Shown: positions 10,424-29,012, counted from the stretch's first letter. The stretch: 64,000 bases of DNA from an uncultured Pseudomonadota bacterium (GCA_963749075.1 CAVVLJ010000017.1:1142062-1206061); one strand, 5' to 3'. The notes: a model not told the origin generated them from the letters alone. Program-made: numbers and translations.

Positions 10424-10470
10424 TTTGAACGATGAGCAAAACAAAACGTTCGTCGCCATGTTTCTCTCGG

Positions 10471-10499: not shown

Positions 10500-10536
10500 A
10501 AACCTTTCGGGCGGCGGACGCCCAAAGAGGTGTACT

Positions 10537-11385: not shown

Positions 11386-11551
11386 ATGGTTACAAAGACG
11401 CCTGAGAAGCCGCCGAGCAAGCGAGAGCCTTAGCATCGCCGGCGAGAAGCTGAGCACTAGCAAGAGCGCGGCTACCAGAACCCTGGCGGGTCGCGTTCTG
11501 TCCGAAGCGGCAGCGATTGCTCGCGCGAAGCCTACACGAAAGGGTCGCTAA
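11386..11551 (+). pseudogene. Small basic protein (54 aa if one extra C is removed)
   Basis: GAGG RBS; MVTKTPEKPPSKRE/LSIAGEKL...TLAGRVLSEAA; length is 166 = 3n+1. Confidence 0.35.
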
Positions 11552-11859
11552 CCCTTAGTCCTTGTGAACCGGCGGCGCCATATCCAGCGCAACGTGTCTG
11601 TTTAGGGCGTCGCCGGCCAAGGTAGGAATGACGCCAGCTTTGAGTGGCCCCTGTCCCGGGTCGTAGGCCGACCGTACCTCGCCGTCCTTCCCCCATATCA
11701 CCAATGCATAGCCCGAAATATCGTCGCCCAGATCTTTGACCATATGGCGGCAAGCTTCAAAGAGTGAGCGCCTAGCGTTTTTGCCTCGTCTTGTCGGCGT
11801 TCTGCTATGATCTCGCTCAAGCGATGGACGCGGATAACTGAGGTCGAGCAAAAAATAGA

Positions 11860-12203
11860 GGAAGTCGATCAGATAGAGGCTATCGTGCGATGTCGCGGCC
11901 AGCGCGTCGAAAATCCGCTTCCAGATGCCGCGGCGAGACCAGCGGTTGAAGCGATTGTAGACCGTCGTGTAAGGCCCATAGCGCTCCGGCAAATCTCGCC
12001 ACGGCATGCCGGTGCGCAGCACGTAGAAGATGCCATTCATGATCCGGCGATCATCCTCTCGCGCCTTCTTGCGAAGGCCCGGCATCAACGGCTCCAGCAC
12101 AGCCCATTCCTCGTCGCTCAAATCAAACCGCATGATCCACCTCCAACCACGGTGAATCACATTCGGACAACTTTTTCAAGACATTATGCGGGTACAGACC
12201 CTA
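11860..12203 (-). mobile_element. Truncated IS5-family (IS427-group-like) element: transposase N-terminus plus left end
   Basis: MRFDLSDEEW...GIFYVLRTGMPWRDLPERYGPYTTVYNRFNRW from ATG 12133; breaks off at the first catalytic Asp; end TAGGGTCTGTACC near 12203. Confidence 0.8.
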
Positions 12204-12302
12204 ACCAGCGAACGGCAGGCCTTGCAGCGCCTCATAATGACAGTGCGCCGCGAGAAGTTGAATCGATGAGACGTAACTCGCAAAAATAGCTTTGACCGGA
12301 TA

Positions 12303-12509
12303 TTGGTCGAGAACAAAATCTTAGAGACTCTGAGGGGAGAGCCTACACCCGTCCAAATAAGGGACTTATTCGTTGCGGTCCGACGTATAAATTATGATCT
12401 GAAAGAGAACACGTTTCGCTCCTACCTCCACAGAATGAAGGTGCGCGGCCTTATTGGGTCAGATCCAACGCGCGGGGGTTGGACCGTGGCCCAGAGAGAG
12501 CCTTCGTAG
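12303..12509 (+). CDS. Small winged-helix protein or fragment
   Basis: ENTFRSYLHRMKVRGLI...GGW wHTH-like pattern; TTG start. Confidence 0.35.
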   Translation: MVENKILETLRGEPTPVQIRDLFVAVRRINYDLKENTFRSYLHRMKVRGLIGSDPTRGGWTVAQREPS

Positions 12510-13067: not shown

Positions 13068-13921
13068 GCGAGCGCTTCAAGGTCGCCTGCATCCAAAGCA
13101 ACGCGGGGCCCGACATCCTGCCCAATATCGCGGACGTCGACCGCCTCGTGCGCTCGGCGCACGCCGCGGGTGCCGAGCTCATCATGACGAGCGAGAACTT
13201 CACCTGCATCGAGTTCGGCGCCGAGCGCTCGCTCGCCAAGGCGCTCTCCGAGGCGGAGCATCCGGCAATCCCGCATTTCACCAAGCTCGCGAGGGAGCTC
13301 GGCAGCTGGCTCCTCTTGGGCTCGCTCACCATCAAGCTCTCGCCCAGCAAGGCCAACAACCGCTCCTACCTGGTCGACCCGGAAGGCCGCATTACCGCAC
13401 GCTACAACAAGCTGCATCTCTTCGACGTGCAGCTCAAGGCGGGCGAGACCTACCGCGAATCGGCGACCGTCGAGCCGGGCGACCGCGCCGTGCTCGCCGA
13501 GACCCCTTGGGGGCCGCTCGGCATGAGCGTGTGCTACGATCTGCGCTTCGCCTATCTCTATCGCGCGCTCGCCCAGGCCGGCGCCAACTATCTTTCCATC
13601 CCCGCCGCCTTCACCAAGACGACGGGCCAGGCGCACTGGCACGCGCTGATGCGCGCCCGCGCCATCGAGACGGGCTCTTACGTCTTGGCCCCGGCCCAGT
13701 GCGGCCAGCACGCGGGCGGGCGCAAGACCTACGGCCACTCGCTCATCGTCGATCCCTGGGGCGAGGTCCTGGCCGACGGCGGCGAAGCGCCGGGCTTCAT
13801 CGTGGCCGAGATCGACCCGGAGAAGGTCCGCGACGCGCGCCGCATGATCCCGGCCCTTGAGCACGACCGCCCCTTCACCGGTCCGGCCAGCGCGAGACCG
13901 CTCGCAGAGGCCGGCGAGTAG
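13064..13921 (+). CDS. Carbon-nitrogen hydrolase (Nit1-like)
   Basis: KLHLFDV, VCYDLRF, RARAIE and [10 protein letters not shown] motifs; ATGA overlap with grxC. Confidence 0.92.
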
Positions 13922-13964
13922 GAGGCCCTCCGCTTCTCGCGATGCGGCCGAGCACGCCTGCAGC

Positions 13965-16298
13965 ATGCCCCTCGTCGAGCCCAACACCGCCGTCCGCGAC
14001 CCGGTCTGCGGCATGCCCGTCGAGCCCGCCGCGGCCAGCTACCGCGCCGGGCACGGCGGCAAGGACTACTTCTTCTGCGGCGCCAAGTGCCGCGAGAAGT
14101 TCGTAGCGGCGCCGGCGAAGTATCTCGGCGGGGGCGACGCAAGCCGGGCGCCGGCTGCGGCCCCGCCTGGTACCCTTGGGGCCGGGCACTGGACCTGTCC
14201 CATGCACCCGGAGGTCGTGCGCCACGCGCCGGGGAGCTGCCCGATCTGCGGCATGACGCTCGAGCCGCTCGTAGCGGGCGGCGCCGGCGAGGCCAATCCC
14301 GAGCTCGCGGCCATGACGCGGCGCTTCTGGGCAAGCCTCGCGCTGGCGCTCCCGCTCTTCCTCCTCGCAATGACGGGCGATTTTGCAGCGGCGCCGCTAG
14401 CCGCCCTCGTTCCGCCGCGCGCGCAGACCTGGCTTCAGCTGGCGCTCGCGACGCCCGTCGTCCTTTGGGGCGGCGCCCCCTTCTTCGCGCGCGGCTGGGC
14501 CTCGCTTCAGAGCCGCCATCTCAACATGTTCACGCTGATCGCCATCGGCATCGGCGTCGCCTATGGCTATAGCCTCATTGCGGCCTTGGCGCCCGGCGTC
14601 TTCCCCGCCTCCTTCCGCGCGCCCGGCGGCGGCGTGGCGCTCTATTTCGAGGCGGCTGCCGTCATCACGACGCTCGTGCTGCTGGGCCAGGTGCTCGAGC
14701 TCCGCGCGCGAGCAGCGACCTCGAGCGCAATTCGGAGCCTCCTCGATCTGGCGCCCAAGACCGCGCGCGCGGTGCGCGCGGACGGCCGCGAGGAGGATCT
14801 CCCCCTCGAGCAAGTCGCGCCCGGCATGGTGCTGCGAGTGCGGCCCGGCGAGAAAGTGCCGGTCGACGGCCGCGTCCTCGAGGGCCGGAGCGCCCTCGAC
14901 GAGTCGATGATCACGGGCGAGCCGCTGCCGGTCGAGAAGGGCGCGGGCGACGCGGTCACGGGTGCCACGCTCAACGGCGCCGGCAGCTTTCTCATGCGCG
15001 CCGAGAAGGTGGGCAGCGACACGCTCCTTGCCCGCATCGTCGCCATGGTGGCCGCAGCTCAGCGCTCCCGGGCACCCATCGAGCGCTTGGCCGACCGCGT
15101 CTCCGCCTGGTTCGTTCCCGCCGTCCTCCTCGCCGCCGCCGTCACCTTCGCCGCCTGGTCGCTCCTCGGGCCGCCACCCGCCATGGCGACGGCGCTCGTC
15201 AATGCCGTTGCCGTGCTGATGATCGCCTGCCCCTGCGCGCTCGGCCTGGCGACGCCGATGTCGATCATGGTGGGCACCGGGCGCGGCGCCAAAGCCGGCG
15301 TCCTCATCAAGGGCGCAGACGCGCTCGAGCTCATGGAGACGGTCGACACGCTCGTCTGCGACAAGACCGGCACGCTCACCGAGGGCAAGCCGCGCCTCGC
15401 GCGCGTCTCGGCCGAGGGCGGCATCGCCGAGGACGAGCTCCTGCGCCTCACAGCTAGCCTCGAGCGCGCGAGCGAGCACCCGCTCGCCGACGCCATCGTC
15501 AAGGGTGCGGAGGAGCGCCACTTGGCACTTTCGCCCGCCGCCGATTTCCACGCCGAGACGGGCAAGGGCGTTAGCGGCACGGTCGATGGCCGCAAGATCG
15601 CCCTCGGCAATGCAGCACTCCTCGCCTCCCTCGCGGTCGAGGCGGGCGGGCTGCCGGATGCTGCCGAGGCGCTGAGGAAGGAGGGCGGCACCGTGATGCT
15701 CGCCGCCGTGGACGGCCGCGCCGCGGGCCTAATCGCGGTCGCAGACCCGATCAAGGCCGGGGCGGCCGACGCCATCAGGGCGCTCGCGGCCAACGGCGTG
15801 CGCACCATCATGCTGACCGGCGACAGCCGCACCACCGCCGAGGCGGTGGCGCGCCGGCTCGGCATCGCCGAGGTGATCGCCGACGTGCTGCCCGAGGGCA
15901 AGGCCGCGACGGTGGCACGGCTCGCGCGCGAGGGGCGCAAGGTCGCGATGGCGGGCGACGGCATCAACGACGCGCCGGCGCTCGCCGCGGCGCGCGTCGG
16001 CATCGCCATGGGCACGGGCGCCGATGTAGCAATTGAGAGCGCCGACATCACCCTCGTGAAGGGCGACCTCGGCGGCATCCTGCGCGCGCGGCGCTTGAGC
16101 CGCGCCGTCATGCGCAACATCCGCCAGAACCTCTTCTTCGCCTTCGTCTTCAACGCGCTCGCGGTGCCGCTCGCGGCGGGCGTGCTCTATCCCTGGACCG
16201 GGCTTCTCCTCAACCCCATGATCGCGAGTGCCGCCATGAGCGCGAGCTCGGTGCTGGTGATCGGCAACGCGCTCAGGCTCAAACGCGCGGCGCTGTGA
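13965..16298 (+). CDS. copA: Cu(I)/Ag-translocating P1B-type ATPase with YHS and CPMHP domains
   Basis: DPVCGM, CPMHP, TGEP, CPC, DKTGT, EHP and GDGINDAP motifs. Confidence 0.93.
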
Positions 16299-16301
16299 GG
16301 G
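16084..16301 (+). repeat. Direct repeat, left copy (copA 3' end)
   Basis: Identical to 28064-28253 over 190 bp, then near-identical through the stop codon. Confidence 0.95.
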
Positions 16302-16338
16302 GCAGCAGCTATTTGCCCGGCTAGGCGTCAAGCGACAA

Positions 16339-16362
16339 ACGGCCGGCATTGCTGCCGGCCGT
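16339..16362. terminator. GC hairpin between convergent genes
   Basis: ACGGCCGGCA-ttgc-TGCCGGCCGT. Confidence 0.5.
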
Positions 16363-16388
16363 CCGTCTCTCAGATCGCAGCCTGGCGT

Positions 16389-16697
16389 TTAGAGAATGCC
16401 GATGCTGACTCCCGGCAGGCTTATGCCGATGGCGGGACCGTACACCACAGGCGGCGGAGCATAGTACGGCCCGCCGTAGACCACTGGGGGCGCGCTATAA
16501 TAGCCGCCATTCCAGTTGCCATGGTCACGTCCACGATCACCGCGGTGGTCACCGCCGTGGTGATCGTTCCGGTGCTGGTCTTCTGCGCTAGCCGACGCGA
16601 CGAACGTCCCCAGCGCGAGAAAGGCGGAGATTGCGAGCGCTGCCGCGAGCATGGCCGGCAGGTGGCGTTTTGCTTTGGTATCGACGATGCAGGTCAT
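16389..16697 (-). CDS. Small secreted His/Pro-rich protein
   Basis: Signal peptide; HHGGDH stretch; YYAPPPVVYGP repeats. Confidence 0.65.
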   Translation of the reverse strand: MTCIVDTKAKRHLPAMLAAALAISAFLALGTFVASASAEDQHRNDHHGGDHRGDRGRDHGNWNGGYYSAPPVVYGGPYYAPPPVVYGPAIGISLPGVSIGIL

Positions 16698-16753
16698 AAC
16701 GACCTCCTTTGATGAGCATGGTGTCACGTCGCGGAACGCGAGCGTTGGCCCTG

Positions 16754-17287
16754 CTAGCTATGCGCCGGAGCGCCCTTGCCACCGAAGCTCTGGAACACCT
16801 GGTCGGCGACCTTCTTCTGCGCATCAGGCATCGAGCTGTAGAGCGTATCGAACGACGAGATCAGGTTCTTCAGCCCATCGACGTGCGCGCGGGCGAACTT
16901 CTCGTAGGTCCGCAGATCGTCCAGCGCGGTCATGCCTTGCGGGGCCTGGGCGGTGTTTTCCGCGACGAGCTTCTCCATGGCGGCGGCGTTGTCGCGCATC
17001 GTCTGCGCGACAGCGGTCCAATTCGTCTCCTCGTCGGGCGTGATCTTTAGCTCGGCGTGGAGGGTGGCGATACGCTGCTCGACGGTCTCCGCCTTCGCCT
17101 CGGCGGCGCTGGCGGTCTTGTTCGGTTGCGCGGCAGCCTGCGCGAGCTGGATCGCCACGCTGGTGGCGCCATCGGCGCGCGCCGCGGTCAGCGGATAGGC
17201 GAGCATCGTCGCGCCCATCAGCGCCGCGATCGCGACCGAGCGCTTGAACGGCACGGACATGACAAGCGGGCGGGAGAAAGTCGACAT
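16754..17287 (-). CDS. Spy/CpxP (LTXXQ) family periplasmic chaperone
   Basis: Signal peptide; LHAELKITPDEE...W; LYSSMPDAQKKVAD. Confidence 0.8.
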   Translation of the reverse strand: MSTFSRPLVMSVPFKRSVAIAALMGATMLAYPLTAARADGATSVAIQLAQAAAQPNKTASAAEAKAETVEQRIATLHAELKITPDEETNWTAVAQTMRDNAAAMEKLVAENTAQAPQGMTALDDLRTYEKFARAHVDGLKNLISSFDTLYSSMPDAQKKVADQVFQSFGGKGAPAHS

Positions 17288-17403
17288 GGTGGTATCCCTT
17301 CTGGATTTGGCAACGGGCGGTGATTTCGCCCACCCGCCGCTTGTGAACTGTTCACTTGGAGATACATCAGAAGTAGTCCCTGGAACTCGCGATCGTCAGC
17401 CCC

Positions 17404-17416
17404 CGGAAACTACTCA
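17404..17416 (-). promoter_or_regulatory. FixJ-box-like motif 1
   Basis: TGAGTAGTTTCCG on the coding strand, ~117 bp upstream of the Spy-like gene. Confidence 0.65.
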
Positions 17417-17451
17417 CAGCGGCGGCGGACGAGCCCGCCGCCTTGGCGGCC

Positions 17452-17817
17452 TCACGACACGGCCGCGGCGCCGAGCGCGCGTTGAATGGCCCGGGCGAGG
17501 TCCGCTTCGCGGAAAGGCTTCTGGATAACCACCGCCGCCGGCCTCAGCGCCTGGACCCTCAAGGCATCGCCGGTCACGAAGACGTGCGGGACGAAGCCGG
17601 AGCAGAGTATCTCCTCGACGGCAGAGACGCCGCTTCCTTCGCCCAAGCGCGCATCGACGACAATCAGGTCCGGTTTGGATCGAATGGCGGCGGCCACCGC
17701 GTCAGCCTCGGTGGCTTCGACCGCGCAAACGTCGTGGCCCATCCCCGCGAGCACTTCGGCCAGGAGCATGGCGACCACGGCCTCGTCTTCCACGACCATG
17801 ATGCGGAGCGCTGTCAT
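17452..17817 (-). CDS. Single-domain response regulator
   Basis: VVEDE, IVVD, VTGD and QKPF receiver motifs. Confidence 0.85.
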   Translation of the reverse strand: MTALRIMVVEDEAVVAMLLAEVLAGMGHDVCAVEATEADAVAAAIRSKPDLIVVDARLGEGSGVSAVEEILCSGFVPHVFVTGDALRVQALRPAAVVIQKPFREADLARAIQRALGAAAVS

Positions 17818-17963
17818 CGGTCTACTTCGCCTCCTGGGCCGCTTTCGTTCACCTAGATTTCGATAGGATCGCGCAGCTCCCGTGCGGCGCACGCGGGGGG
17901 CAGCGGTCCGATCAACGGCCGCCGATGCCGACCATAGTTGATGGAAGATCGCCGAGAGCAGGT

Positions 17964-17978
17964 TCGGAAACTACTCAG
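17964..17978 (-). promoter_or_regulatory. FixJ-box-like motif 2
   Basis: CTGAGTAGTTTCCGA upstream of the REC gene. Confidence 0.65.
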
Positions 17979-18023
17979 GCTCGTTCGCGGGAGATCGCTT
18001 GGTGCCGATGTTCGGCCCTGGCT

Positions 18024-18170
18024 TCAGCTGCGGAAAAGCGGCCGCCGCCCTGGCGTCGCGCGCTGACCGGGCGCGCTCGCTTGGCTCTGCTGCCTTTGCT
18101 GACCCGTCTGCACCGGCTTTGCCTGCTCGGGTCGGCCGCTCTCATTCGGCCGGATATTGTCGTCGGTCAT
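18024..18170 (-). CDS. Small hypothetical protein (48 aa)
   Basis: GGAGG RBS; ends GRRPLFRS. Confidence 0.5.
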   Translation of the reverse strand: MTDDNIRPNESGRPEQAKPVQTGQQRQQSQASAPGQRATPGRRPLFRS

Positions 18171-18202
18171 GGAACCTCCCGTTGTCTCAGCCCACTCGAT
18201 CG

Positions 18203-18712
18203 TCACTGGTTGGCGTTCGGCGGTTGCGTCTGCGGGGAGACCGTGCTGGAGGCCGGCGCGTGCGTATCGTCCATCTGAGCCGGCGTTTGACGGCTTGCGA
18301 CGATCCATTGCGCGCCCAGCATCAAGGCCATGACGATCGCGTTGATAAGGATCACCCGTACGATGTGTCGGGGATTGGCCGCCGCGCCGGCGCCGAGCAA
18401 CGTCTCGCGCGACGGGACATTGGAACGGACCTGGCGCGGCAAGAGCGCGATCAGGCGAGCCGCGATCGTTCCGGGTTCGAGATTCCCCGCCGGCCTGTCG
18501 GGCAGTGCCGCAATCAGCGAGGCCAAGGCCTCGGTCGCCGCTTTTCCCGGCAAGCGAGCTAATTTGGCAGCCTCCTGCCAGGGGTCGACATCCAGTCGCG
18601 CCAGCGCCGACAGGACGCTGAGCGGCATGCCGTTTCCCTCTTCGCGGATCGGCGCGAATAAAAAGTCGTTGAACTCTGAGCCAAGGTAAGAAGCCGCGGC
18701 AGAGCGCGTCAT
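18203..18712 (-). CDS. Hypothetical membrane protein
   Basis: FNDFLFAPI...LSVLSALARLDVDPWQEAA; one C-terminal TM segment. Confidence 0.65.
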   Translation of the reverse strand: MTRSAAASYLGSEFNDFLFAPIREEGNGMPLSVLSALARLDVDPWQEAAKLARLPGKAATEALASLIAALPDRPAGNLEPGTIAARLIALLPRQVRSNVPSRETLLGAGAAANPRHIVRVILINAIVMALMLGAQWIVASRQTPAQMDDTHAPASSTVSPQTQPPNANQ

Positions 18713-18830
18713 TTCAATCACCGAATGTCGCCGGCTCTTGTGGCGCCATGGAGCCGACTATGAGGCAGGGGCACGATTGTCGCAGCCACCCAAAGCAAAC
18801 CGTATTGCACTGCGGTTAATCGCGACAGCC

Positions 18831-18845
18831 TCGGAAACTACTCAG
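18831..18845 (-). promoter_or_regulatory. FixJ-box-like motif 3
   Basis: CTGAGTAGTTTCCGA, identical to motif 2. Confidence 0.65.
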
Positions 18846-19058
18846 AGCTGCGACCATTCCGGCTGACCGGCGAACGCGGCGCGGGTCAGCGCCTGCGGCC
18901 GCACCGATGCCGCGCGGGCAACGCCGCGGCGGAGAAACAGTGATGGGAGTTATCCGCGGCGGCCTTAATGGCTCGCCGTCCGCGCGTTGCTCTAATGGCC
19001 GCCCTTGCGGCGCGCCGTCACCGGCACCTGCGCATACCGTGCGGAGAAGGCATAAATC

Positions 19059-19325
19059 TTAGGCTTCGGTATCCCTTGGATGGTCGATCACACCGGAGCC
19101 CCTTGAGCTCCTGTCCCGGTCACCCGGAACGCCCTCGGCGGCGAGCCCACGCCGAAGCAGCTCTCGCACCGTCGCCGCACGGCTTGGCATGCGCCATTTG
19201 AACCGGAAGTCGTCGATAACCTCGAGTTCCTTCGGCGCCAGCATGATCTGCAGCCTTTCGCCGCGGGCCTTCGTGAATGAAATCCGGCGGCGGCCGAGAT
19301 GGCTAATTTTTAGCTTGTAAATCAA
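19059..19325 (-). CDS. Ribbon-helix-helix-like small regulator
   Basis: ERLQIML...IDDFRF..RMPSRAATVRELLRRGL. Confidence 0.6.
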   Translation of the reverse strand: MIYKLKISHLGRRRISFTKARGERLQIMLAPKELEVIDDFRFKWRMPSRAATVRELLRRGLAAEGVPGDRDRSSRGSGVIDHPRDTEA

Positions 19326-19509
19326 TTAGTTATTTCTTGAGCATCCGGGAAAATAAGGGGATAATTCAGGTTATGGCTTAGTTTCCGCCTGCGAAGCGAT
19401 TGGGAATGCGATGAGCGGAATGCCTTACGGCGGACGCTCGCCATTTTCTGATCCCGGTGGGCGCGCTCCACCTCCCATTGGGGAGTAACCGTTCGGGAAC
19501 GGTTGAGGA

Positions 19510-22500
19510 ATGCCAAAAAGCCGTCCGCATCAGGCCAAGGCGGTTCGGCCGCGTGCGGGCCGGCGCCCACCGGCGGCGCGCGGCTCTCCTCGCGGATCTC
19601 GGGGACTTCCCGGTCGTCGGAATAGGCGCCTCGGCGGGCGGCCTCGATGCCTGCAGGAAGCTGGTGGACGCGCTGCCGGCCGGCAACGGCATGGCCTTCA
19701 TCCTGGTCCAGCATCTCGATCCGACCCACGAAAGCATGATGGTGGACCTGCTGGCCGGCCACACGTCGATGACCGTGCGGCAGGCAACGGACGGAATGCC
19801 GCTCGAGCGCGAGCCACCTCTATGTCATCCCGCCCGGAACCTATCTCTCCGTCGGCAACGGCGCCCTGCACCTCTCGCAGCCGCAGGCGCGTCACGGCGC
19901 GCGCCTGCCGTTCGACTTTCTGCTGCACTCGTTGGCCGAGGAATGCGGCGCGCGCGCCATCTGCGTGATCCTTTCGGGAACAGGGGCCGACGGCAGCCTT
20001 GGGCTGAAGGCCGTGAAGGAAAAGGGCGGGCTCGTCATCGCGCAGGACCCCGACGAGGCCGGCTATGACGGCATGCCGCGCAGCGCGATCATGACGGGTG
20101 CGGTCGACCTTGTGCTTCCGGTGGCGAAGATTCCCGAGGCGCTCGTCAAATACGACCGGCGGATGGGCCTCGCACGCACGCCGAACGGGTCGCGCCCGCA
20201 GGATACGGCACAGGATTGGCTGCCCGAGATCATCGATCTTCTGCGCACGAAGACCGCCCATGATTTCACGCTCTACAAGCCGGGCACGCTGCAGCGCCGG
20301 ATCGAGCGGCGCATGGCGATGGCGGCGATCGAGACCGATGACATGGATCGGTATCTCGAGATCTCTGCGGAGCGACGCGAGCGAGCTCGACCTTCTTGCC
20401 AAGGACCTGCTCATCAACGTCACCAGCTTCTTCCGCGATCCGAAGGTGTTCGATCTCCTGGCGGCGAAGATCGTTCCCGACCTGGTCCGCAAGCACGCGC
20501 CCGATCATCCCCTGCGCATCTGGATTGCCGGGTGCAGCACGGGCGAGGAGACCTATTCCCTTGCCATGCTGTTCCGCGAGGAGATCACGGCGGCGAAGCG
20601 CAACGTCAAGCTGCAGGTCTTCGCCTCCGATGTCGACCCGGATGCGGTCGCGAGCGCCCGCGAGGGCCTCTACCCGGAAACGATCGAGGCGGACGTGTCG
20701 CCGGCACGACTTGCCCGCTTCTTTGCGAAGGAGGATCACGGCTACAGGGTCTTGCCCGAGCTGCGCGCGGCGGTGGTCTTCACGGTGCAGGACGTGCTGG
20801 CCGATCCGCCGTTCTCGCGCCTCGACCTGGTTTCATGCCGGAATCTTCTGATCTATCTGCGCCCCGAGGCGCAGGCGAAGGTCGTCTCGCTGTTCCATTT
20901 CGCGCTGCGCGAGGGCGGCATTCTGCTTCTTGGCAGCTCGGAGACGGTCGGCAACGTCGACGGCCGCTTCGAGGTGATCTCCAAGCCGGAGCGGCTCTAT
21001 CGGCACATCGGTCGCAGCCGGCCGGGAGAACTCGGCTTTTCGAGGGCCGCCGGCGACGGCGTGCGAGTCCTCGCGCGCCCGGGACAAGGCCAAGCGCCCT
21101 CGCGCCAGGCCGCTCTCGCCGAGCTTTGCCGACGGCTGGTGATGGAGACCTATGCGCCGGCGGCGGTGCTGATCAACCGCAAGCATGAGTGCCTCTATTC
21201 CTCGGGACCGACGGACCGCTATCTGCGCGTGGCGCCGGGGCAGCCCGACCCACGATCTGCTCGCCATGGCGCGCGCAGGACCTGCGGACCAAGCTCCGCT
21301 CGGCAATCCAGCAGGCCAGCCAGGAGAACGCGCGCATTGTCGTCGCCGGCGGCCGGACGAACCACGATGGCAATGCCGGGTCGTTCAGCATCGCCGTGCA
21401 GCCGGTTCTGAGCGAGGGCGAGGAGCTGCTGCTGATTTGCTTCGTCGACGAGCCGAAGCACGAGCGCGAGGCGAGGCCGCCAGACGCGCCAAAGGGGACG
21501 TTCCGCGGGTCGCCGAGCTCGAGCAGGAGCTCGAAGCCACGAGAGCGGAGCTCCAGGGCGCCATCCGCAACCTCGAGATTTCGAGCGAAGAGCAGAAGGC
21601 GATCAACGAAGAGGCGTTGTCCGTCAATGAGGAATACCAATCGACCAACGAGGAGCTGCTGACCTCGAAGGAGGAATTGCAGTCGCTCAACGAGGAGCTC
21701 ACCGCCCTCAACAGCCAGCTCCAGGAGACGCTGGAGCGGCAGCGCACGACCTCCAACGATCTGCAGAACATCCTGTACAGCACCGATGTCGCGACGCTCT
21801 TCCTCGACACCAGCCTCAATATCCGCTTCTTCACGCCGGCCACCAAGTCGCTCTTCAGCGTCATTCCCAGCGACGTCGGGCGGCCGCTCGCGGACCTCAA
21901 CTCGCTGGCTGCCGATGGCGCGCTTCTGAGCGATGCCCGGACGGTGCTGCAGACCCTCGCGCCGATCGAGCGCGAGATCGAAGCGCAGAACGGCGCCTGG
22001 TACATCCGCCGCGTATTGCCTTACCGCACCCAGGACAACGGGGTCGAGGGCGTCGTCATCACCTTTGCCGACATCACCGAGCGGCGGCGCGTGGCGGACG
22101 CGCTGGAGGCGGCCAAGCGGCAAGCAGACCTGGCGAATGTCGCGAAATCGCGCTTTCTCGCCGCCGCGAGCCATGACCTCCGCCAGCCGCTTGCAAACGC
22201 TCGCCCTGCTGCAGGGACTGTTGGCGAAAACCGTCGAGGGGGAGAGAGCGCAGAAGCTGGTCGCGCGGCTCGACGAGACGTTGAGCGCCATGTCGGGCAT
22301 GCTGAACACGCTGCTCGACATCAACCAGATCGAGGCCGGCACCGTCCGCGCCGAAATCGTCGATTTCCCGATCAACGATCTCTTCGAGCGGATGCGGGAC
22401 GAGTTCACCTATCACGCGCAGGCGCAGAGGCTTGCCTTGCGCGTGGTCCCGTGCGGCCTTTCGATACGCAGCGATCCGCGCCTGCTCGAGCAGATGATCC

Positions 22501-23900
22501 GCAACCTGCTCTCGAACGCGTTGAAATACACCAAGCGCGGCAAGGTGCTGCTCGGCTGCCGCCGGCACCAAGGGATGCTGAGCATCGAGATCTGGGACAC
22601 CGGAATCGGCATCCCCGACGAGGAGCTTCAAGCGATCTTCGAGGAGTACCATCAGCTCGACAATGCCGCGCGCGAACGGAGCCGCGGCCTTGGCCTCGGT
22701 CTCTCCATCGTGCAGCGCCTGGGCAAGTTGCTGGGCCATCGCATACGCGTCCGCTCGCGGCCGGGCAAGGGCTCGGTCTTCGCCATCGAGGTCGCGCTGC
22801 CGCGGAGCGAGGCGGGAGCTGAGCGCGAGCGCCAGCGGCACGGCCCGGACGAGCGGATCGTCGCGGGCGGACGCCGCACCGGCGCGATCCTGGTCGTCGA
22901 GGACGATCCCGAAGTGCGCGAGCTCCTCGAGCTCTTTCTCAAGGACGAGGGCCATCGCACGGCAGCGGCGCTGGACGGCGTCGCAGCGCTGGAATTGGTG
23001 GCGCGAGGGACGGTCCGACCCGACCTCATGCTCGCCGACTACAATCTGCCGAAGGACATGAACGGGCTCCAGCTCACCGCAAAGCTGCGGGAGACGCTTC
23101 ATCGCCAGATCCCGGCCATCATTCTGACCGGCGACATATCGACCGGCACCTTGCGCGACATCGCGCTTCAGGATTGCGTGCAGCTCAACAAGCCGGTGAA
23201 GCTGAAGGAGCTGACGCAAGTCATCCAGCGGCTCCTTGCCGTACCGCACGCCGTGCCGGCCGCGCGGACTCCGCGCGCCGCCGATGCCCCAACCGGCGCC
23301 GCGTCGCCCATCATCTTTGTCGTCGATGACGACAGCCAGGTACGCGAGGCGATTCGCTCGGTGCTCGAGGAGGATGGCCGGACCGTCGAGGATTATGAGA
23401 GCGGCGAGGCATTCCTCGAAGCCTATCGTCCGGGCCGCGAAGGATGCCTCTTGATCGATGCCTATCTGCCCGGGATGAACGGGCTCGAATTGCTGCAGCG
23501 GCTGCGTGCTGCGGGCCATCGGCTGCCCGCCATCATGATCACCGGCAATAGCGACGTGCCGATGGCGGTCGAAGCCATGAAGGCGGGTGCTTCGGACTTC
23601 ATCGAGAAGCCGGTCGGCCGCGGCGAACTGCTCGCCGGCGTCGAGCGCGCGCTCGAACAGTCGCGGGATGCGGCTAAGCTATCCGCCTGGCGAGAGGAGG
23701 CGGCTAGTCACATCGCGGGTCTCACGCCGCGGCAGCGCCAGATCATGGAGCTGGTCCTCGCCGGCCACCCCAGCAAGAATATCGCCGCGGACCTCGGCAT
23801 CAGCCAACGCACCGTCGAGAACCATCGCGCCGCGATCATGAAGAGAACGGGCGCCAAGTCTCTTCCGGCGCTGGCCCGATTGGCGCTCGCCGCGGCGTGA
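19510..23900 (+). pseudogene. CheB-CheR-PAS-HisKA-HATPase-REC-REC-LuxR fusion, broken by about 6-7 single-base frameshifts (real or sequencing error)
   Basis: CheB GASAGG/QHL/SGTGADG; CheR GCSTGEE/SCRNLLIY; NEELQS coiled coil; SHDLRQPL; GLGLGL; two REC domains; LTPRQ...GISQRTVENHR HTH; spread over successive frames. Confidence 0.88.
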
Positions 23901-23964
23901 AACGGCGCTGCGGAGGCGCTCGTTCAAGGTTGCCCTCCCGTCGCGGCGCGCGGTCAACAGCCGG

Positions 23965-23979
23965 TAGGTAGTTTCCGAG
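23965..23979 (+). promoter_or_regulatory. FixJ-box-like motif 4
   Basis: TAGGTAGTTTCCGAG upstream of the 24054 ORF. Confidence 0.6.
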
Positions 23980-24053
23980 GCTGGCGCGCTCGCATCAGCA
24001 CTCGGTACTCTGCGTCGCAGGCCCGGCCGCCGCAAGGCCGCAAGGCCGCAAGG

Positions 24054-24320
24054 ATGACGGCCAGATCATGGAGAGAACTCATGCAGCTCATTCAAAGCGA
24101 TCATACGGGAGACCGCCGTCTGAGATTTGTCTTTAGCGACAGAGTGCTGTCGTTTCTTCTTGCCTCCGATGCGACCTTCGGGGACGTGGCATGGAAGCTG
24201 GGCGAAGTTTTCAACCGGCATTGTGGCAATCCGGTCGGCATCGACGTCACCTTGGGCTCTGGCGAGGATCATTCGGCTCACGGTATTTCGAGCCGATCGG
24301 GGCTGGAATCTGCGCTTTGA
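24054..24320 (+). CDS. Hypothetical protein
   Basis: Short ORF downstream of motif 4; no recognisable family. Confidence 0.4.
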   Translation: MTARSWRELMQLIQSDHTGDRRLRFVFSDRVLSFLLASDATFGDVAWKLGEVFNRHCGNPVGIDVTLGSGEDHSAHGISSRSGLESAL

Positions 24321-24430
24321 TCCCACCGCCCTGCAAGCCGTACGGTGAACCAGACGCCGTGCTTCTGGCGCGCTATCTCGTTCGCCTTCCGCCGCAATGC
24401 CGGCGGAAGCTGCGCCGTCGCCCGCTGTTC

Positions 24431-24517
24431 CTTATCTTCCTCGTCGACGACGGCGACCACATTTGCGAGACGCAGCGCAGCGTGCTCGAGGCCCACGGCC
24501 GGGCCGTCGAGAATTGT
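24431..24517 (+). pseudogene. Remnant of a FixJ-type receiver domain
   Basis: LIFLVDDGDHICETQRSVLEAHGRAVEN resembles IIFVVDDDSQVREAIRSVLEEDGRTVED at ~23310. Confidence 0.5.
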
Positions 24518-24759
24518 GCGATCGCCGATGCATCGGAAACGGGGCCGACGATTAGCTTGTTCAACGGGGATCTTCAGTCACGGCCGCGCGGCGAACACGC
24601 GTAGTTCTCGATCGCCGCCGTGAGTAGATCCCGGCGGCTGACGATCGGCATTCCCGTACCCATTTGACGTATCACCGATCGAACGGCAAGCGAGCTGTCA
24701 ATCCGCTCGGCAATGGTGCACGAGTAGATAAATCGTTTAACGCCGAAAGGGGTAGAGGC

Positions 24760-24957
24760 ATGCGCCCGATGTTTAAGCTTGCGGCCGCGTTTACTCTTAC
24801 GGTCGGTGCGGCTCTAACCATCACGCCCCGCTCGGCTCCTGGCGATCCCGCCCCGTTGCCTTCGCGGGTCCTGCACAATCCCGATTCGACCTATCGTCCG
24901 GAGATGGTCTTCTTCGCCAGCGCCAAGATGCAGAACGTCGTTAATGGCATATTTTGA
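24760..24957 (+). CDS. Small secreted hypothetical protein
   Basis: GAGG RBS; signal-peptide-like MRPMFKLAAAFTLTVGAAL; degenerate motif TGAGTAGATCCCG at 24621. Confidence 0.35.
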   Translation: MRPMFKLAAAFTLTVGAALTITPRSAPGDPAPLPSRVLHNPDSTYRPEMVFFASAKMQNVVNGIF

Positions 24958-25107
24958 CACATGCACGACCGGTCATCGGGGACTGGGCTCTCCTCGACCT
25001 CAAGTCATATCGGCAAGGCACTCCGCCCCATCAGCTTTTCTCAGTGATGCTCCGGACTGTCCCTTCGAGAGGGGCGCGCCGACAAGCCCGGCGCGTCGGC
25101 GGACTTT

Positions 25108-25122
25108 CTGAGTAGCTTCCGA
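25108..25122 (+). promoter_or_regulatory. FixJ-box-like motif 5 (one mismatch)
   Basis: CTGAGTAGCTTCCGA. Confidence 0.5.
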
Positions 25123-25567
25123 ATCTGTGTCGTCGGCCTGACTTGGACGATAATCGGCGAGCTCGGAGTCTGATTGTCATCCCATCTCCGATCATCGCCG
25201 CGACTCGCATCGGCTGGGTCGGACGCCGCGCAGCCTCGCGCCGCCCCACCCGGTTTAGAGAGAGGACATTCGATGGCATACGGTACGCTTTGAAGGAAAG
25301 ACCCCGTCAGCCACGGAAGGAGCCGACGGGGGCCAAGGAGGTTGGGCTACCCAACAGCCGGAGGGGAGGGGAGGGGGCTGGTTGGGGCTCGAGAGGAGGC
25401 GCGAATTGCACGCGCCAGCATCCTTCTGCCGCGCGCGCGAAGTGCCGCATGTTCAAGAAAGCATACCGGCGGAAATTCATTCTCGCTGCACGATCATCCG
25501 GCCCCGACCGCCCAGAAACAGAAGCGCCGGCGTTCGCACGCCGGCGCTCCGCCGCTATGCGCTGCCG

Positions 25568-26242
25568 TCAGATCCCGCCAAGCGCCTGCCTCAAGTCGGC
25601 AGCACCCGGGTTGCTGACGGTGCGGCGCACGACGATGTCGCGCACCGAGACGTTACGGCCGTAATAGGCCACGTCCCAATCATGGTGCGGACCCATGGCA
25701 CCGCCCTTGACGTCGACGCCGCCGAACAGGCCCTTCGATTCGGCGACGACATAGATGTCGGCGCCGACATTGGTCGTCGTCGACGCTCCGGCGCCGGCGC
25801 CCAAGGTGGCGACCGTCAGCCCGGCCTCGGCGCCGAGATCCACCTTGTTCTCGATCACCGCGTTGAGCGCCTTGCGGCTCATGATGATGACCATGACCTT
25901 GGAGACCTCGACGCCGATCTGGAAGCCGAACGAGGCGGCGCCCAGGTCGTAGAAGGCCGGGTCGCTCCAATTGCCCTTGCCGTCGCGGGCGAGGAGGACG
26001 CCGGTGCCGCCCTCGGCGCCGAAGATGAAGCCGCCCTTGACCAGCTCGGGCACGATCAGCACCGCACGCGAGTGGCGGATCAGCTCGCGCGTCTTGGCGG
26101 CGAGATCGTTGTTGCTGTCGTGGACCTCGCGGACGACGTTGAGGGCCTCGTCGACGGCGTGCTGCTGATCGGGTGCCGCCTGGGCGAACGGGGCCGCGGC
26201 CAGGCTGAAGGCGATGGCAGCGGATATGGCGAGAAGTCTCAT
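25568..26242 (-). CDS. Ysc84/SYLF lipid-binding domain protein
   Basis: Signal peptide; KGGFIFGAEGGTGVL; WSDPAFY; GASFGFQIG; SKGLFGG. Confidence 0.85.
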   Translation of the reverse strand: MRLLAISAAIAFSLAAAPFAQAAPDQQHAVDEALNVVREVHDSNNDLAAKTRELIRHSRAVLIVPELVKGGFIFGAEGGTGVLLARDGKGNWSDPAFYDLGAASFGFQIGVEVSKVMVIIMSRKALNAVIENKVDLGAEAGLTVATLGAGAGASTTTNVGADIYVVAESKGLFGGVDVKGGAMGPHHDWDVAYYGRNVSVRDIVVRRTVSNPGAADLRQALGGI

Positions 26243-26397
26243 TGCGATGCTCCTGTTTCCTCGGGTTGCTCGTGTCGGTCGAAATTCGGTCCCTGCCTGC
26301 GGCTCGAGACCGACGCGTCCTGCTGCACGGGGGGCAAAGACGACTGGCTTGCTCGGGCAGCCCTCAAGCCGCATCCGCGATGCCGCCACCGCTTCGG

Positions 26398-26964
26398 CTA
26401 ACCGGCGTCCTGCCAGTAGAGTGCCCGCGATATCGCACCCGTCGGGGAAACCTCGACCGACCTCGTGAGCGTCCTGCCTTGGCTCTCCGCGACGATCTCG
26501 TACTTGCCGGGCCTTACGTTGGCGAAGAAGTAGGGGCCTTCCGCCACCGTGTCGACGAGCGTATTGCCGCCGTGGTCCACTAGCCGCACATGCACGCCGG
26601 CGAGGTACGCGCCGGAGCCCTCGACCGCAAACAGGAGCCGCAGGTTGTAGCCGCTCTCGACCGCGCGCATGGCGGCTTTGCCTTCGTTGCCTACGCCGCC
26701 GCTCGCGAAGATGACGCCTCCTTGATTGTGGGGCTGCACGGCTTGCCGCGTCTCATTCGCGATGGCGCCGACCGTGCTCTCGGTCTCCGATCTCACGACG
26801 GAGTTTTGCGCCTGCGCCCAGCCCAACAAAGCGCCTGAAAGCGCGACTTCGGCCTGCGACCCCAGAAGAAAGCCTTGTGCCTGCGCCGCATCGGGCGTCG
26901 CCACTCCCGTCCAACCCAACAGGGCGGCTGAAAGTGCGGCCTGTAGCCATATCTTCGCGGTCAT
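26398..26964 (-). CDS. Secreted carboxypeptidase-regulatory-like domain protein
   Basis: Signal peptide; SGGVG; YNLRLLFA; GPYFFANVRPGKY. Confidence 0.7.
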   Translation of the reverse strand: MTAKIWLQAALSAALLGWTGVATPDAAQAQGFLLGSQAEVALSGALLGWAQAQNSVVRSETESTVGAIANETRQAVQPHNQGGVIFASGGVGNEGKAAMRAVESGYNLRLLFAVEGSGAYLAGVHVRLVDHGGNTLVDTVAEGPYFFANVRPGKYEIVAESQGRTLTRSVEVSPTGAISRALYWQDAG

Positions 26965-27119
26965 GGCGCGCCTCCTAAATTGCCTGCGATGCTCATAGGG
27001 CCGGCATCCGCTGCCTGGCCGAGTTGAGCCTCTTAGTTGGGCATCCTTCTATTGCGCGAACGACTGCCCCGAATGTCCACGAGTACTGGAGATAAGAACG
27101 CGATCTGCCCGCCAGTAGG

Positions 27120-27134
27120 CTCGGAAACTACTTA
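27120..27134 (-). promoter_or_regulatory. FixJ-box-like motif 6
   Basis: TAAGTAGTTTCCGAG on the minus strand, facing the 26964 gene. Confidence 0.65.
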
Positions 27135-27277
27135 TGCGGAATTCGCCGGATACCCGCAGAGAACCAACGCCGGCGCTGGTCAGAAAGTTCGGCCAAGGAG
27201 CGGCGTTATTTACAGCTCTCGCCGTTCATCGCGAGACCGCGCGAGGCTGGCTCAGGGAATGTTACGGCGGCCGGACG

Positions 27278-27292
27278 TAAGTAGTTTCCGAG
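27278..27292 (+). promoter_or_regulatory. FixJ-box-like motif 7
   Basis: TAAGTAGTTTCCGAG on the plus strand, facing the MlaC-like gene; perfect inverted copy of motif 6. Confidence 0.65.
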
Positions 27293-27383
27293 TCTATCGT
27301 TGTAAGCGCGCAGCGGCCTATCGTCGGGGTCGACTGCCTTAATAGCGGATGATGTGACCGTCAGGATAAATCGGGAGGCACTC

Positions 27384-28056
27384 ATGGCGCGCTGGCACAT
27401 GCTGAAGGCGTTGCGCTCAAACTCCCTTGCGACTCTCAGCCGCGATGTGCCCGTGGCTGTTGTGGCATGCGCCGCACTGTGCGCACTCTTGCTCTCGACT
27501 CCGGCGCGGTCGGCGGACCTCCCCGCCGAGGCCGCCGCTTTCGTCAACGGGCTCGCCGGCCAGGCGCTCACCATTCTCGAGAATAAATCGATCAGCGATG
27601 ACCAGCGCAAGTCGAGCCTCGCCGAGTGGCTTTTCGCCAATTTCGATGTGCGCGCGATGGGACTCTTTGCCCTTGGCGATTACGCCGGCGGGGCGGCGGA
27701 CCCTCAAAGGGACGCATATCTCCTGATCTTCAAGGACTACATGATCCGCAATTATTTCTCCCGCATGCAGGCTCTCGGCAACGTGTTTTCCGTGGGCGGC
27801 GCCTCCCTCGACGGCGCCGATATCGTGCTCGTGGTCAGCGACATCGGCTCGCGGGGCGAGCAGCCGTCCCGGGTCGAGTGGCGCGTCCGCAAGCAGGACG
27901 GCGCGCTCAAGGTTTTCGAACGTCATTGTCCAGGGCTCCAGCCTGGAGTGGAACCAGCGCGCCGACTTCGCCTCAGTCCTGCAGCGCAATCATGGCGACA
28001 TCGCGCAGCTCATGGACCTCATGCGGGTGCAGAAGGTCGGCCGCGAGACGCCATGA
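27384..28056 (+). pseudogene. MlaC/Ttg2D-family protein with one frameshift near 27918
   Basis: FDVRAMGLFALG and VEWRVR..G..KVF, continuing as NVIVQGSSL..NQRADF in the next frame. Confidence 0.75.
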
Positions 28057-28063
28057 GGCCTCA

Positions 28064-28281
28064 GCGCGCGGCGCTTGAGCCGCGCCGTCATGCGCAACAT
28101 CCGCCAGAACCTCTTCTTCGCCTTCGTCTTCAACGCGCTCGCGGTGCCGCTCGCGGCGGGCGTGCTCTATCCCTGGACCGGGCTTCTCCTCAACCCCATG
28201 ATCGCGAGTGCCGCCATGAGCGCGAGCTCGGTGCTGGTGATCGGCAACGCGCTTCGCTTGAGGCGCGCGGCGCTGTGAGGG
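28064..28281 (+). repeat. Direct repeat, right copy (displaced copA 3' end)
   Basis: Matches 16084-16301; differs only in the codons for LRLK vs LRLR. Confidence 0.95.
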
Positions 28282-28288
28282 ACAGCGC

Positions 28289-28924
28289 CTACTTCCCCGG
28301 CTGGGGCGTTAGCCGCAGATAGGGCTTGAGCGCCTTCCAGCCGAGCGGGAACTTCTTCTTGGCGTCGTCGTCGCTCACCGAGGGCACGATGATCACGTCC
28401 TCGCCCTGCTTCCAATTGACCGGGGTGGCGACCTGGTACTTGTCGGTGAGCTGCAGGGAGTCGACGACGCGCAGGATCTCGTCGAAGTTGCGCCCCGTGG
28501 TCTGCGGATAGGTGATCATCAGGCGGATCTTGCGCTTGGGATCGATGACGAAGACGGTGCGCACGGTGTACACCTCGTCGTGCGAGGGGTGCATCATGCC
28601 GTAGAGGTTGGCCACTTTCCGCTCCGGGTCGGCGATGATCGGGAAGGCCACCTTGGCGTGCTGCGTCTCCTCGATGTCCTTGACCCAGCCCGCGTGCAAG
28701 CTCACGGGATCGACCGAGAGGCCGATCACCTTGACGCCGCGCTTCGTGAACTCGGGCACCAGCTTGCCGACGTAGCCGAGCTCGGTCGTGCACACCGGCG
28801 TGAAGTCCTTGGGATGCGAGAACAGGATGGCCCAGCCCTCGCCGATCCAGTCGTGGAAGCGGATGCGCCCTTGCGTCGTGTCCGCTTCGAAATCCGGGGC
28901 CGTATCGCCGAGACGAAGCGTCAT
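28289..28924 (-). CDS. 1-Cys peroxiredoxin (Prx6 family)
   Basis: FSHPKDFTPVCTTE, YPQTTGRNFDEILR and ATPVNW motifs. Confidence 0.94.
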   Translation of the reverse strand: MTLRLGDTAPDFEADTTQGRIRFHDWIGEGWAILFSHPKDFTPVCTTELGYVGKLVPEFTKRGVKVIGLSVDPVSLHAGWVKDIEETQHAKVAFPIIADPERKVANLYGMMHPSHDEVYTVRTVFVIDPKRKIRLMITYPQTTGRNFDEILRVVDSLQLTDKYQVATPVNWKQGEDVIIVPSVSDDDAKKKFPLGWKALKPYLRLTPQPGK

Positions 28925-29012
28925 GGTCACACCTCCCTTTGCATCGCTTGATGGGGCTGCCGTGAAGGCGCTCCTCAAATAAGCCCCTCGAGGGCAGAGA
29001 GCAAGGTTTAGT

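Follow-up and report, generated by a model that had tools for sequence, protein, structure and literature searches.

A 12-kb genomic island with a CheB/CheR-fused sensor kinase, a FixJ-like output module and the boxes that the module probably reads

The locus raised the question of whether a genomic island can carry both a regulator and the promoter sites which that regulator reads. The stretch analysed, called the window throughout, covers 64,000 nt of an uncultured Pseudomonadota bacterium (GCA_963749075.1 CAVVLJ010000017.1:1142062-1206061), and its own assembly, G000, holds 5,488,800 bases. An earlier note on the window had described a FixJ-box-like motif upstream of most transcription units of an island at 16302 to 28063, and had proposed a portable circuit in which a CheB/CheR-gated kinase with its own DNA-binding output drives small envelope proteins. 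Comparison of the island with its genome, with homologous loci and with a sample of the whole class indicated that the box is probably the operator of the FixJ-like receiver and helix-turn-helix (HTH) module that forms the C-terminal end of a giant sensor kinase, encoded in the island at 19510..23900 on the plus strand by what is called the big gene below.

The box was 21 nt long and had the form T-R-R-GTAGTTTCCG-A-G-n-C-T. Its core, GTAGTTTCCG, was found exactly on the minus strand in box 1 (17392..17417, core 17404-17413), box 2 (17953..17978, core 17965-17974), box 3 (18820..18845, core 18832-18841) and box 6 (27110..27135, core 27122-27131), and exactly on the plus strand in box 4 (23964..23989, core 23968-23977), which lies 68 nt past the stop of the big gene, and in box 7 (27277..27302, core 27281-27290), the inverted twin of box 6. 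Two copies with one mismatch were found on the plus strand, namely box 5 (25108..25133, core 25112-25121 reading GTAGCTTCCG, with a -10-like GATAAT) and a copy at 19378-19387 which was not in the earlier note. These eight core matches in the window compare with a mean of 1.53 in 100 dinucleotide-preserving shuffles, and none of the shuffles (0/100) reached 8. In the 5,488,800 bases of the genome the exact core occurred nine times, and six of the nine copies were inside about 10 kb of the island.

A box matrix of 22 nt, trained on 129 sites of other genomes only, avoided circularity and superseded an earlier position weight matrix made from the seven window sites themselves. Six matches above 18 bits were obtained in the genome, all of them (6/6) in the island, and none above 18 bits in the reversed-genome control. 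Boxes 2, 3, 4, 5, 6 and 7 scored 35.3, 35.9, 31.1, 24.0, 35.5 and 36.1 bits, respectively. The seventh island site, box 1, scored 13.7 bits, while the top score outside the island was 12.3 bits. The low score of box 1 was due to a 3' half spaced one base longer than the consensus, and the same spacing was seen in sites of G009, a relative from another genus (4094 and 8617 of L011, which is G009:C11; L numbers denote homologous loci). Exact cores outside the island (C17:1102854, C20:151605 and C23:120711) and a near-match (C2:96799) had no flanking consensus, lay in open frames and were set aside as chance matches. The copy at 19378 was also rejected as a box, with less than 10 bits and without flanking consensus.

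All the motif copies of the earlier note, which had given the starts of the extended motif, were recovered, and its impression by eye that the motif is confined to the island was confirmed by the genome-wide core count and the matrix scan. The identical 15-mer TAAGTAGTTTCCGAG was shared in inverted orientation by boxes 6 and 7 in the divergent 26964/27384 region, as had been observed. The weaker copy at 24621 was present as the degenerate box GTGAGTAGATCCCG (24618..24640, plus strand), a duplicate of the box-1 promoter stretch, in the form of a 35-nt inverted repeat 89% identical to 17390-17424; behind it stands an open reading frame (ORF) at 24664-24957 (97 aa, signal-peptide-like). The statement that the motif precedes the following gene on the coding strand held at six sites, where the core points at a gene with its start about 82-167 nt downstream; at 25112 no convincing gene follows.

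The big gene was delimited by its Pfam domains, a tblastn frame map and a DNA alignment with the copies of G009 and of G035, a relative from another family, to which it showed 86% and 78% nucleotide identity, respectively. The order of domains was CheB esterase, CheR methyltransferase, Glu-rich coiled coil, PAS_10, HisKA, HATPase, receiver, FixJ-like receiver and LuxR/GerE HTH. The corresponding Pfam matches between 19.5 and 23.9 kb were CheB_methylest, CheR_N, CheR, PAS_10, HisKA, HATPase_c, two Response_reg and GerE, split over frames, and the G035 and G009 copies contained full-length CheB_methylest, CheR_N, CheR and PAS_10. With both enzyme domains N-terminal to PAS and kinase, the protein belongs to the CheB/CheR fusion sensor kinases, and the enzyme domains matched solved CheR and CheB structures in the PDB. 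Intact homologues elsewhere measure about 1450-1570 aa, which corresponds to a protein of about 1500 aa, and a single ORF of at least 1440 aa was present in 34 of the 44 loci with full 10-kb flanks, the set used for positional statistics. The strings GASAGG, QHLDP, GtGaDGS and GCStGEEtYS, which we take to be the CheB/CheR catalytic residues, were at least 90% conserved in the 34 intact homologues, as were the H box and the Glu-rich NEEL coiled coil that precedes PAS_10. Both receivers kept the acidic pocket, the phospho-acceptor Asp, the Thr and the Lys in 3/3 aligned copies. The Inquilinus homologue, scored over its kinase-receiver core, reached 365.9 bits with NCBIfam NF041832 (NahK/ErcS hybrid kinases), short of the cut-off of 400 bits.

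The association of box and gene was followed in two samples. For the first, one genome per species was scanned with the kinase-receiver-HTH part, which yielded 280 relatives, and the best 80 were kept, giving 80 homologous loci with a total of 1,361,277 bases from Inquilinus, Rhizomicrobium, Roseiarcus, Acetobacteraceae, Stellaceae, Telmatospirillum, Rhodopila, Bradyrhizobium, Methylovirgula, one Paraburkholderia and others. The second was a class sample of 401 genomes, evenly drawn over the whole class, in which a match at E<=1e-120 defined a carrier of the gene. The motif was strongly enriched both beside homologues of the fused protein and in carrier genomes, as the co-occurrence of motif and gene in the earlier proposal would have it.

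Near the homologues 129 exact cores were counted, and 62/80 loci had at least one; the reversed sequence gave 1 and 30 permuted 10-mers gave 0-7. The matrix found 238 sites over the 80 loci against 0 in the control, with at least one site in 70/80 loci. In the 44 full-flank loci the sites were gathered about the gene, 82 of 140 being within 2 kb of the gene ends and 4 inside the gene span, and a plus-strand box was present within 400 nt after the gene in 13/44. Sites upstream of the gene pointed away from it in 59 cases versus 8, and box-driven autoregulation of the big gene was rejected on this count and on the score of the 19378 copy.

In the class sample the gene was present in 12 genomes and the 14-mer box consensus TRRGTAGTTTCCGA in 17. 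The box was found in 10/12 carriers versus 7/389 non-carriers, and carriers held 30 of the 38 14-mer matches. The 8 matches in non-carriers are at or below chance, because the backwards-pattern control gave about 48 matches (hand count) spread over the sample. Related genomes in the class sample are not independent; the ten positive carriers span seven families (f1, f26, f42, f44, f70, f90 and f181). A perfect 14-mer box was also seen at G002:C332:1120-1133, within a short contig similar to the promoter stretch of box 1, in a genome of the same genus without the big gene; the box either is an orphan or was left over from an island since lost.

The C-terminus of the large protein, described in the earlier note as a FixJ-like module of receiver and LuxR-type HTH, was confirmed as such. 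For the C-terminal 204 aa the top PDB match was FixJ 5xso (7e-45 over 194 residues), followed by StyR 1yio (3.9e-42) and the FixJ C-domain 1x3u (1.3e-13). With Response_reg plus GerE and with FixJ and StyR as its closest solved relatives, the module falls in the FixJ subfamily of NarL/LuxR response regulators, and the best NCBIfam family was FixJ NF006900. A tblastn search of the assembled genome with the module found no second FixJ-like receiver-HTH protein; the other matches covered the receiver only, except one that covered the HTH at 29% identity. The recognition-helix string SQRTVENHRA was identical in 76/80 homologues, and this near-invariant helix is taken to match the near-invariant box. 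Co-variation of helix and box was also considered, and no signal of co-evolution could be drawn, both being nearly invariant.

The box itself was compared by eye with experimentally defined FixJ sites, as far as these are quoted in PMC4999443, which gives a SELEX class GTAGTTTCCC, also GTAMGTAG, and the fixK site TAAGTAATTTCCCTTA, with FixJ footprints at -69/-44 and -57/-31. The class I core of S. meliloti given in the earlier note was borne out by these strings. The consensus TRRGTAGTTTCCGA agreed with the quoted sites GTAGTTTCCC, GTAMGTAG and TAAGTAATTTCCCTTA. Agreement with the class I site GTAGTTTCCC reached 9/10 positions, and once the TAAG/TGAG prefix is included there is overlap with the class II site as well as with TAAGTAATTTCCCTTA of fixK, so that TAAGTAGTTTCCGAG of the window resembles the quoted FixJ sites joined together.

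Several observations weigh against the proposal that the FixJ-like module reads the boxes. The big gene is not one ORF in the assembly but six reading-frame segments produced by eight single-base insertions, so that the full-length protein could not be made from the assembled sequence, and by this the portable circuit of the earlier note is qualified, since the motif is restricted to the island and co-occurs with the gene but the assembled regulator is cut. No Hpt domain was detected in the big protein that could stand between the kinase and the second receiver in the phosphate route. The module scored 212.4 bits (23286-23900) and the Inquilinus homologue 231.6 bits with NF006900, the top-scoring family for both but below the cut-off of 255 bits, and at 212 versus 255 bits it is classed by its sequence as FixJ-like and not as FixJ. 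No convincing gene was found behind box 5, and 25100-25580 had no homologue in any fetched locus. Ten of the 80 loci had no site above the threshold, six of them on contigs of up to 6 kb, and the 14-mer was lacking in the carriers G220 and G394, the most divergent ones (48-50% identity). Six genomes (G002, G214, G254, G343, G388 and G397) had a box but no FixJ-like gene at E<=1e-30, a number within chance. That the module binds the box and activates transcription, and that the gene works in the living organism despite its frame breaks, we infer from sequence.

The frame breaks bear most directly on the first alternative, in which the nine insertions of the island are real and the circuit is dead, with a pseudogene for a regulator and boxes left behind without a reader as the island decays. 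The eight insertions of the big gene, placed by three-way DNA alignment with G009 and G035 near 19596, 19813, 20363, 21243, 21276, 21468, 21487 and 22191, fall within 2.6 kb, and a ninth, near 27921 in the MlaC-like gene, showed in an alignment with its paralogue on C20 (84% identity). The last 568 codons of the big gene (22194-23900), which run from within the dimerisation domain through the ATPase and both receivers to the HTH, share one frame, and the G009 and G035 genes have one insertion each of their own. Housekeeping genes amounting to about 19 kb (rpoB, rpoC, two dnaE-type genes, mfd and uvrA) were each one open frame without stops, so the breaks are confined to the locus and do not reflect poor assembly in general. 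Further signs in the island are the relic of a receiver, the degenerate box and the box that no gene follows.

Other observations speak against a dead circuit. All nine events are +1 insertions, most of them outside homopolymers, and when the singleton columns were dropped the G000 gene had no in-frame stop. In 855 codons of the broken part there were 24 private amino-acid changes in G000 versus 46 in G009, and the private base changes of G000 by codon position 1/2/3 were 21/15/53; the third-position bias and the few private amino-acid changes argue for purifying selection and not for long drift. Public metagenome contigs, which are mostly from relatives in soil and peat metagenomes and so give no proof of what the source reads contain at the nine insertion sites (no public run contained more than 18% of the sampled words), left out one base at 19813-15, 20364, 21243/47 and 22191. 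A 99%-identical contig (3 other letters in 264) and a 98%-identical contig over 19400-19744 had one gap each. The gene was split in 11/80 homologous loci, namely in 9/27 from 'MFD ... contig_' bins, which we take to be long-read assemblies, versus 2/53 others, a distribution that fits consensus errors. The frame breaks are therefore read, with good but not overwhelming confidence, as consensus errors or very recent mutation and not as old decay. Between these two they are probably consensus errors and less likely very recent decay. The insertions might stem from a consensus mixed from several related populations that share the island. A dead circuit is consequently held to be an unlikely but serious alternative.

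The second alternative assigns the boxes to a free-standing FixJ of a FixL-FixJ oxygen system encoded elsewhere, with the fused kinase as a mere neighbour. The near identity of the box with the FixJ sites quoted in PMC4999443 speaks for it, and so does G175, a box-carrying genome without the fused gene, which has three FixJ-like genes of 40-46% identity. Yet G175 was the only one of the seven box-positive non-carriers with FixJ-like genes at E<=1e-30, G000 itself, with 4% of the genome unassembled, has no other receiver-HTH protein of this type by tblastn, the sites cluster within 2 kb of the fused gene, and over the whole-class sample the box was at or below chance in the 389 non-carriers (8 matches against about 45 in the backwards control). 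This alternative is considered improbable, and the fused module is retained as the probable reader of the box.

The position of the box relative to the promoter supported an activator. In the alignment of 140 sites from 83 loci (the 80 homologous loci, two further relatives and the window), conservation outside the core was seen at T -2 (137/140), A +11 (126), C +14 (128) and T +15 (130), with R at -1 and 0, and a TWAnnnT element followed at +38 to +44; in the window copies the -10-like element was at +34 to +41. From the core end to the -10-like TAnnnT, which is of the housekeeping type, there were 29 nt, a distance that is too great for a -35 element but suits the binding site of an activator. 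The geometry is that of a predicted activator site centred at about -46 and abutting a weak -35. A sigma-70 consensus scan of 16.0-28.4 kb gave a single match, the box-free TTGAGC-17-GATAAT at 19337..19365 (plus strand) before the big gene, as expected if the box promoters need an activator. That the motif is instead the -35 element of an alternative (ECF-type) sigma promoter, to which EcfG-like sigma genes behind boxes in five other loci and the general-stress look of the targets might point, is very improbable in view of this spacing and -10 type, with no match to the EcfG general-stress promoter GGAAC-N16/17-CGTT in the whole window and no sigma factor seen among the island ORFs of at least 85 aa, of which a chosen subset was searched with Pfam.

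The genes behind the boxes were then assigned. The target of box 1 is an LTXXQ (Spy/CpxP-like) periplasmic protein of 177 aa (16754..17287, minus strand; PF07813, 2.1e-10), with homologues behind boxes in 3 other loci. A secreted protein of 112 aa, rich in His, Gly and Pro (16389..16727, minus strand), had no Pfam or NCBIfam match and is probably the second gene of the Spy-like operon; a stretch homologous to its gene lies beside the Spy-like gene in G009. Box 2 precedes a stand-alone receiver of the PhyR-receiver/SdrG-like kind (17452..17892, minus strand; Pfam Response_reg), whose start is likely the ATG at 17817. Its best NCBIfam match was the PhyR-family receiver and its best PDB matches were PhyR receivers, with SdrG also matched, and the lone receiver was the commonest box-driven gene, in a cluster of 12 loci including the window. 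Box 3 precedes a conserved protein of 172 aa with one predicted membrane helix (18203..18721, minus strand). It had no Pfam or NCBIfam family and only 'hypothetical protein' clusters in Atlas, and homologues stood behind boxes in 9 loci including the window, in most cases not far from the lone receiver. An 88-aa ORF (19059-19325, minus strand) without box or family separates box 3 from the big gene; by eye it resembles a ribbon-helix-helix protein.

For box 4 the automatic choice of the first downstream ORF (137 aa, at 24191) was wrong, and tblastn pointed to a small conserved protein of about 80 aa without a family (24081..24320, plus strand), whose homologues follow boxes in L038, L046 and L081 at 39-48% identity and, with a weaker match, in L021. 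It is followed by a receiver relic (24345..24560, plus strand), a fragment from the N-terminus of a FixJ-type receiver and not a gene, since tblastx of 24300-25110 matched the second receiver of the big gene in L011, L022, L024, L025, L038, L040 and L060. The relic and the duplicated degenerate promoter at 24618-24640 indicate a past rearrangement. Box 5 heads toward the terminator of the convergent SYLF operon, and its product might be antisense RNA or a small RNA missed by annotation; a known RNA was sought behind it, and no Rfam match at E<=1 was obtained in 24300-25600.

Box 6 precedes a two-gene operon recognised by Pfam (25568..26964, minus strand). Its first gene (26398-26964) encodes a secreted CarboxypepD_reg-like protein of 188 aa, with PF13620 below its cut-off, and its second (25568-26389) a Ysc84/SYLF-domain protein (PF04366, 9.9e-29), after which a terminator hairpin with a 13-bp stem was found at 25550-25521. 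The target of box 7 is the gene of an MlaC-like periplasmic lipid-binding protein (27384..28055, plus strand), the one broken near 27921, in which Pfam MlaC covers only 5-131 of 166.

In the relatives, the first ORF behind each of the 129 sites was clustered and 120 of these ORFs, some of which may be spurious, were scanned with Pfam. The families found were lone receiver (10), PRC barrel (7), CsbD (5), EcfG-like sigma factor with a PhyR_sigma2 domain (5), SPFH/Band 7 (4), DUF3309 (4), LTXXQ (3), and BON, glutamate-type decarboxylase, OmpA and YflT (2 each); glutaminase, ferritin, KaiC, ClpB, hemerythrin, entericidin, MlaC and Ysc84 were each seen once. For about 47 of the ORFs Pfam gave no family, and no Crp/Fnr-type target was found among the 120 scanned. 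From these families the targets in relatives appear as a stress and envelope set with an acid-resistance flavour. This set is broader than the small envelope cargo named in the earlier note. Glutaminase and glutamate-type decarboxylases were observed behind boxes in L011 (G009:C11) 7223-8305, L027 1896-3386 and L030 3-923, which hints at a role in acid resistance in bacteria from peat and acidic soil.

The island is bounded by two direct repeats of 247 nt, 94% identical and 11,980 bp apart. The left one (16079..16325, plus strand) is the 3' end of the intact P-type ATPase gene copA (ORF 13857-16298), and the right one (28059..28305, plus strand) is a displaced copy of the copA 3' end, adjoining a peroxiredoxin gene (28289-28978, minus strand). 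The big gene was not found in 5/5 same-genus genomes searched (79-100% complete), which have no island genes and only 80 nt to 3.2 kb between the end of copA and the peroxiredoxin gene. The flanking repeats duplicate the target and the relatives have an empty site, as is characteristic of genomic islands, and the insertion is bounded and foreign. No integrase or transposase was found among the island ORFs scanned with Pfam or read. The box-plus-gene modules were reordered in G009. The gap between copA and the peroxiredoxin gene measures 80 nt to 3.2 kb in the five relatives versus 12 kb here and looks like an insertion hot spot.

Two further features of the window lie outside the island. A low-GC stretch at 9600-12500 (55-59%) contains, by eye, an NYN-domain-like ORF (9603-10226) and a fragment of an IS5-like transposase (11555-12160), and is a separate mobile remnant left of copA. 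A complete rRNA operon (16S, tRNA, 23S, 5S, tRNA) occupies 53778-59279 and accounts for the GC-skew and the GC dip at the right end of the window.

A mechanism can be proposed from these elements. The kinase gene would be transcribed from its own consensus-like, boxless promoter, so the regulator is probably constitutive and controlled by phosphorylation. A cytoplasmic signal, read by PAS_10 and possibly tuned by methylation, would control autophosphorylation, and the phosphate would reach the FixJ-like receiver. The phosphorylated module would bind the asymmetric box at about -46 and recruit sigma-70 RNA polymerase, which would switch on six or seven small neighbouring transcription units, namely the Spy-like chaperone with the small secreted protein, the PhyR-type lone receiver, the 172-aa membrane protein, the 80-aa protein, the SYLF operon and the MlaC-like protein. 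The induced lone receiver would feed back on the system, and might either draw off phosphate or connect the circuit to the general stress response. Gating of the kinase by CheB and CheR is presumed, and the conserved CheB, CheR and Glu-rich coiled coil suggest that methylation may tune the kinase. It is a more tentative thought, and on balance a doubtful one, that the whole works as an adapting sensor in the style of chemotaxis, in which CheR and CheB methylate and demethylate the NEEL coiled coil, giving a methylation memory to a private, transferable stress regulon with the lone receiver as sink or bridge.

The presence of regulator and operators together on an 11,980-bp insertion at the copA 3' end suggests a transferable plug-in circuit. 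It is unusual for one protein of about 1500 aa to join methylation enzymes, a sensor, a kinase, two receivers and a DNA-binding domain, and the gene occurs in no fewer than 280 genomes at species level, the majority of them soil and peat Alphaproteobacteria. Since the operator is defined almost base for base and is nearly absent from non-carriers, the regulon can be read from sequence alone. The window would be a natural demonstration of portability, with every site of the genome and the only matching regulator on one 12-kb insertion, and a regulator that moves together with its target promoters could avoid rewiring of the host. A role in surviving stress in acidic soil is suggested by the targets in relatives (CsbD, BON, PRC-barrel, SPFH and Spy-like proteins, EcfG-like sigma factors, glutamate decarboxylase and glutaminase). 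Two-component regulators and FixJ boxes are themselves well known; new in the window are the clean island borders, the placement of all sites and the only cognate regulator on the island, and the nine frame breaks.

Among known systems, the CheB/CheR fusion sensor kinases, presumably those listed as KEGG K13924, share the order of CheB_methylest, CheR_N, CheR, coiled coil, PAS_10 and kinase, while the subgroup described here adds two receivers and an HTH and has its own transcriptional output. The literature searched contained annotation mentions of CheB/CheR fusion kinases and no functional study of any of them; a 'CheB-CheR hybrid' is noted in the genome paper of Rhodospirillum centenum, PMC2890560. 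No description of the kinase-plus-box system was found in the literature searched, and a search for the core string returned unrelated primer and miRNA matches only.

The alphaproteobacterial general stress response (PhyR-NepR-EcfG) shares target families with the box regulon, EcfG-like sigma genes are among the targets, and the lone receiver of the island is closest to PhyR receivers. CsbD, BON, PRC barrel, YflT, Dps-like ferritin and entericidin are typical of EcfG regulons. The island differs in using an activator box instead of a sigma switch, without GGAAC-N16/17-CGTT. In StyS-StyR and TodS-TodT, in which regulators of the FixJ subfamily work with complex kinases, the activator sites also lie upstream of sigma-70 promoters, and StyR 1yio was the second-best solved relative of the module (3.9e-42). 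These systems have a separate kinase and regulator, catabolic operons as targets and a palindromic operator, whereas the box here is asymmetric. The hybrid two-component systems of Bacteroides combine sensor, kinase, receiver and AraC HTH in one polypeptide and resemble the present protein in having the whole pathway, including the DNA-binding output, in one protein that usually controls adjacent genes. They are membrane-anchored periplasmic sugar sensors with AraC-type output, whereas the protein here is cytoplasmic and LuxR-type, with two receivers and methylation enzymes, and has no sequence kinship with them.

A further comparison is with FixL-FixJ of Sinorhizobium meliloti and Bradyrhizobium. 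The receiver plus LuxR/GerE module is closest to FixJ 5xso, the box is near the class I, class II and fixK sites as far as they are quoted, and the site is upstream of and abuts the -35, an upstream-activator arrangement as at fixK and nifA. The recognition helix is SQRTVENHRA here and SPRTIEVYRA in the FixJ of 5xso. FixJ is free-standing, whereas the module here scores below the NCBIfam FixJ cut-off and is fused to its kinase as the C-terminus of a CheB-CheR-PAS_10 protein, which places it outside the FixL-FixJ system. FixL has its own sensor, a haem PAS, and here the sensor consists of CheB, CheR and PAS_10. Targets of the fixK or nif kind are absent, and the module would serve a local regulon of small stress and envelope proteins.

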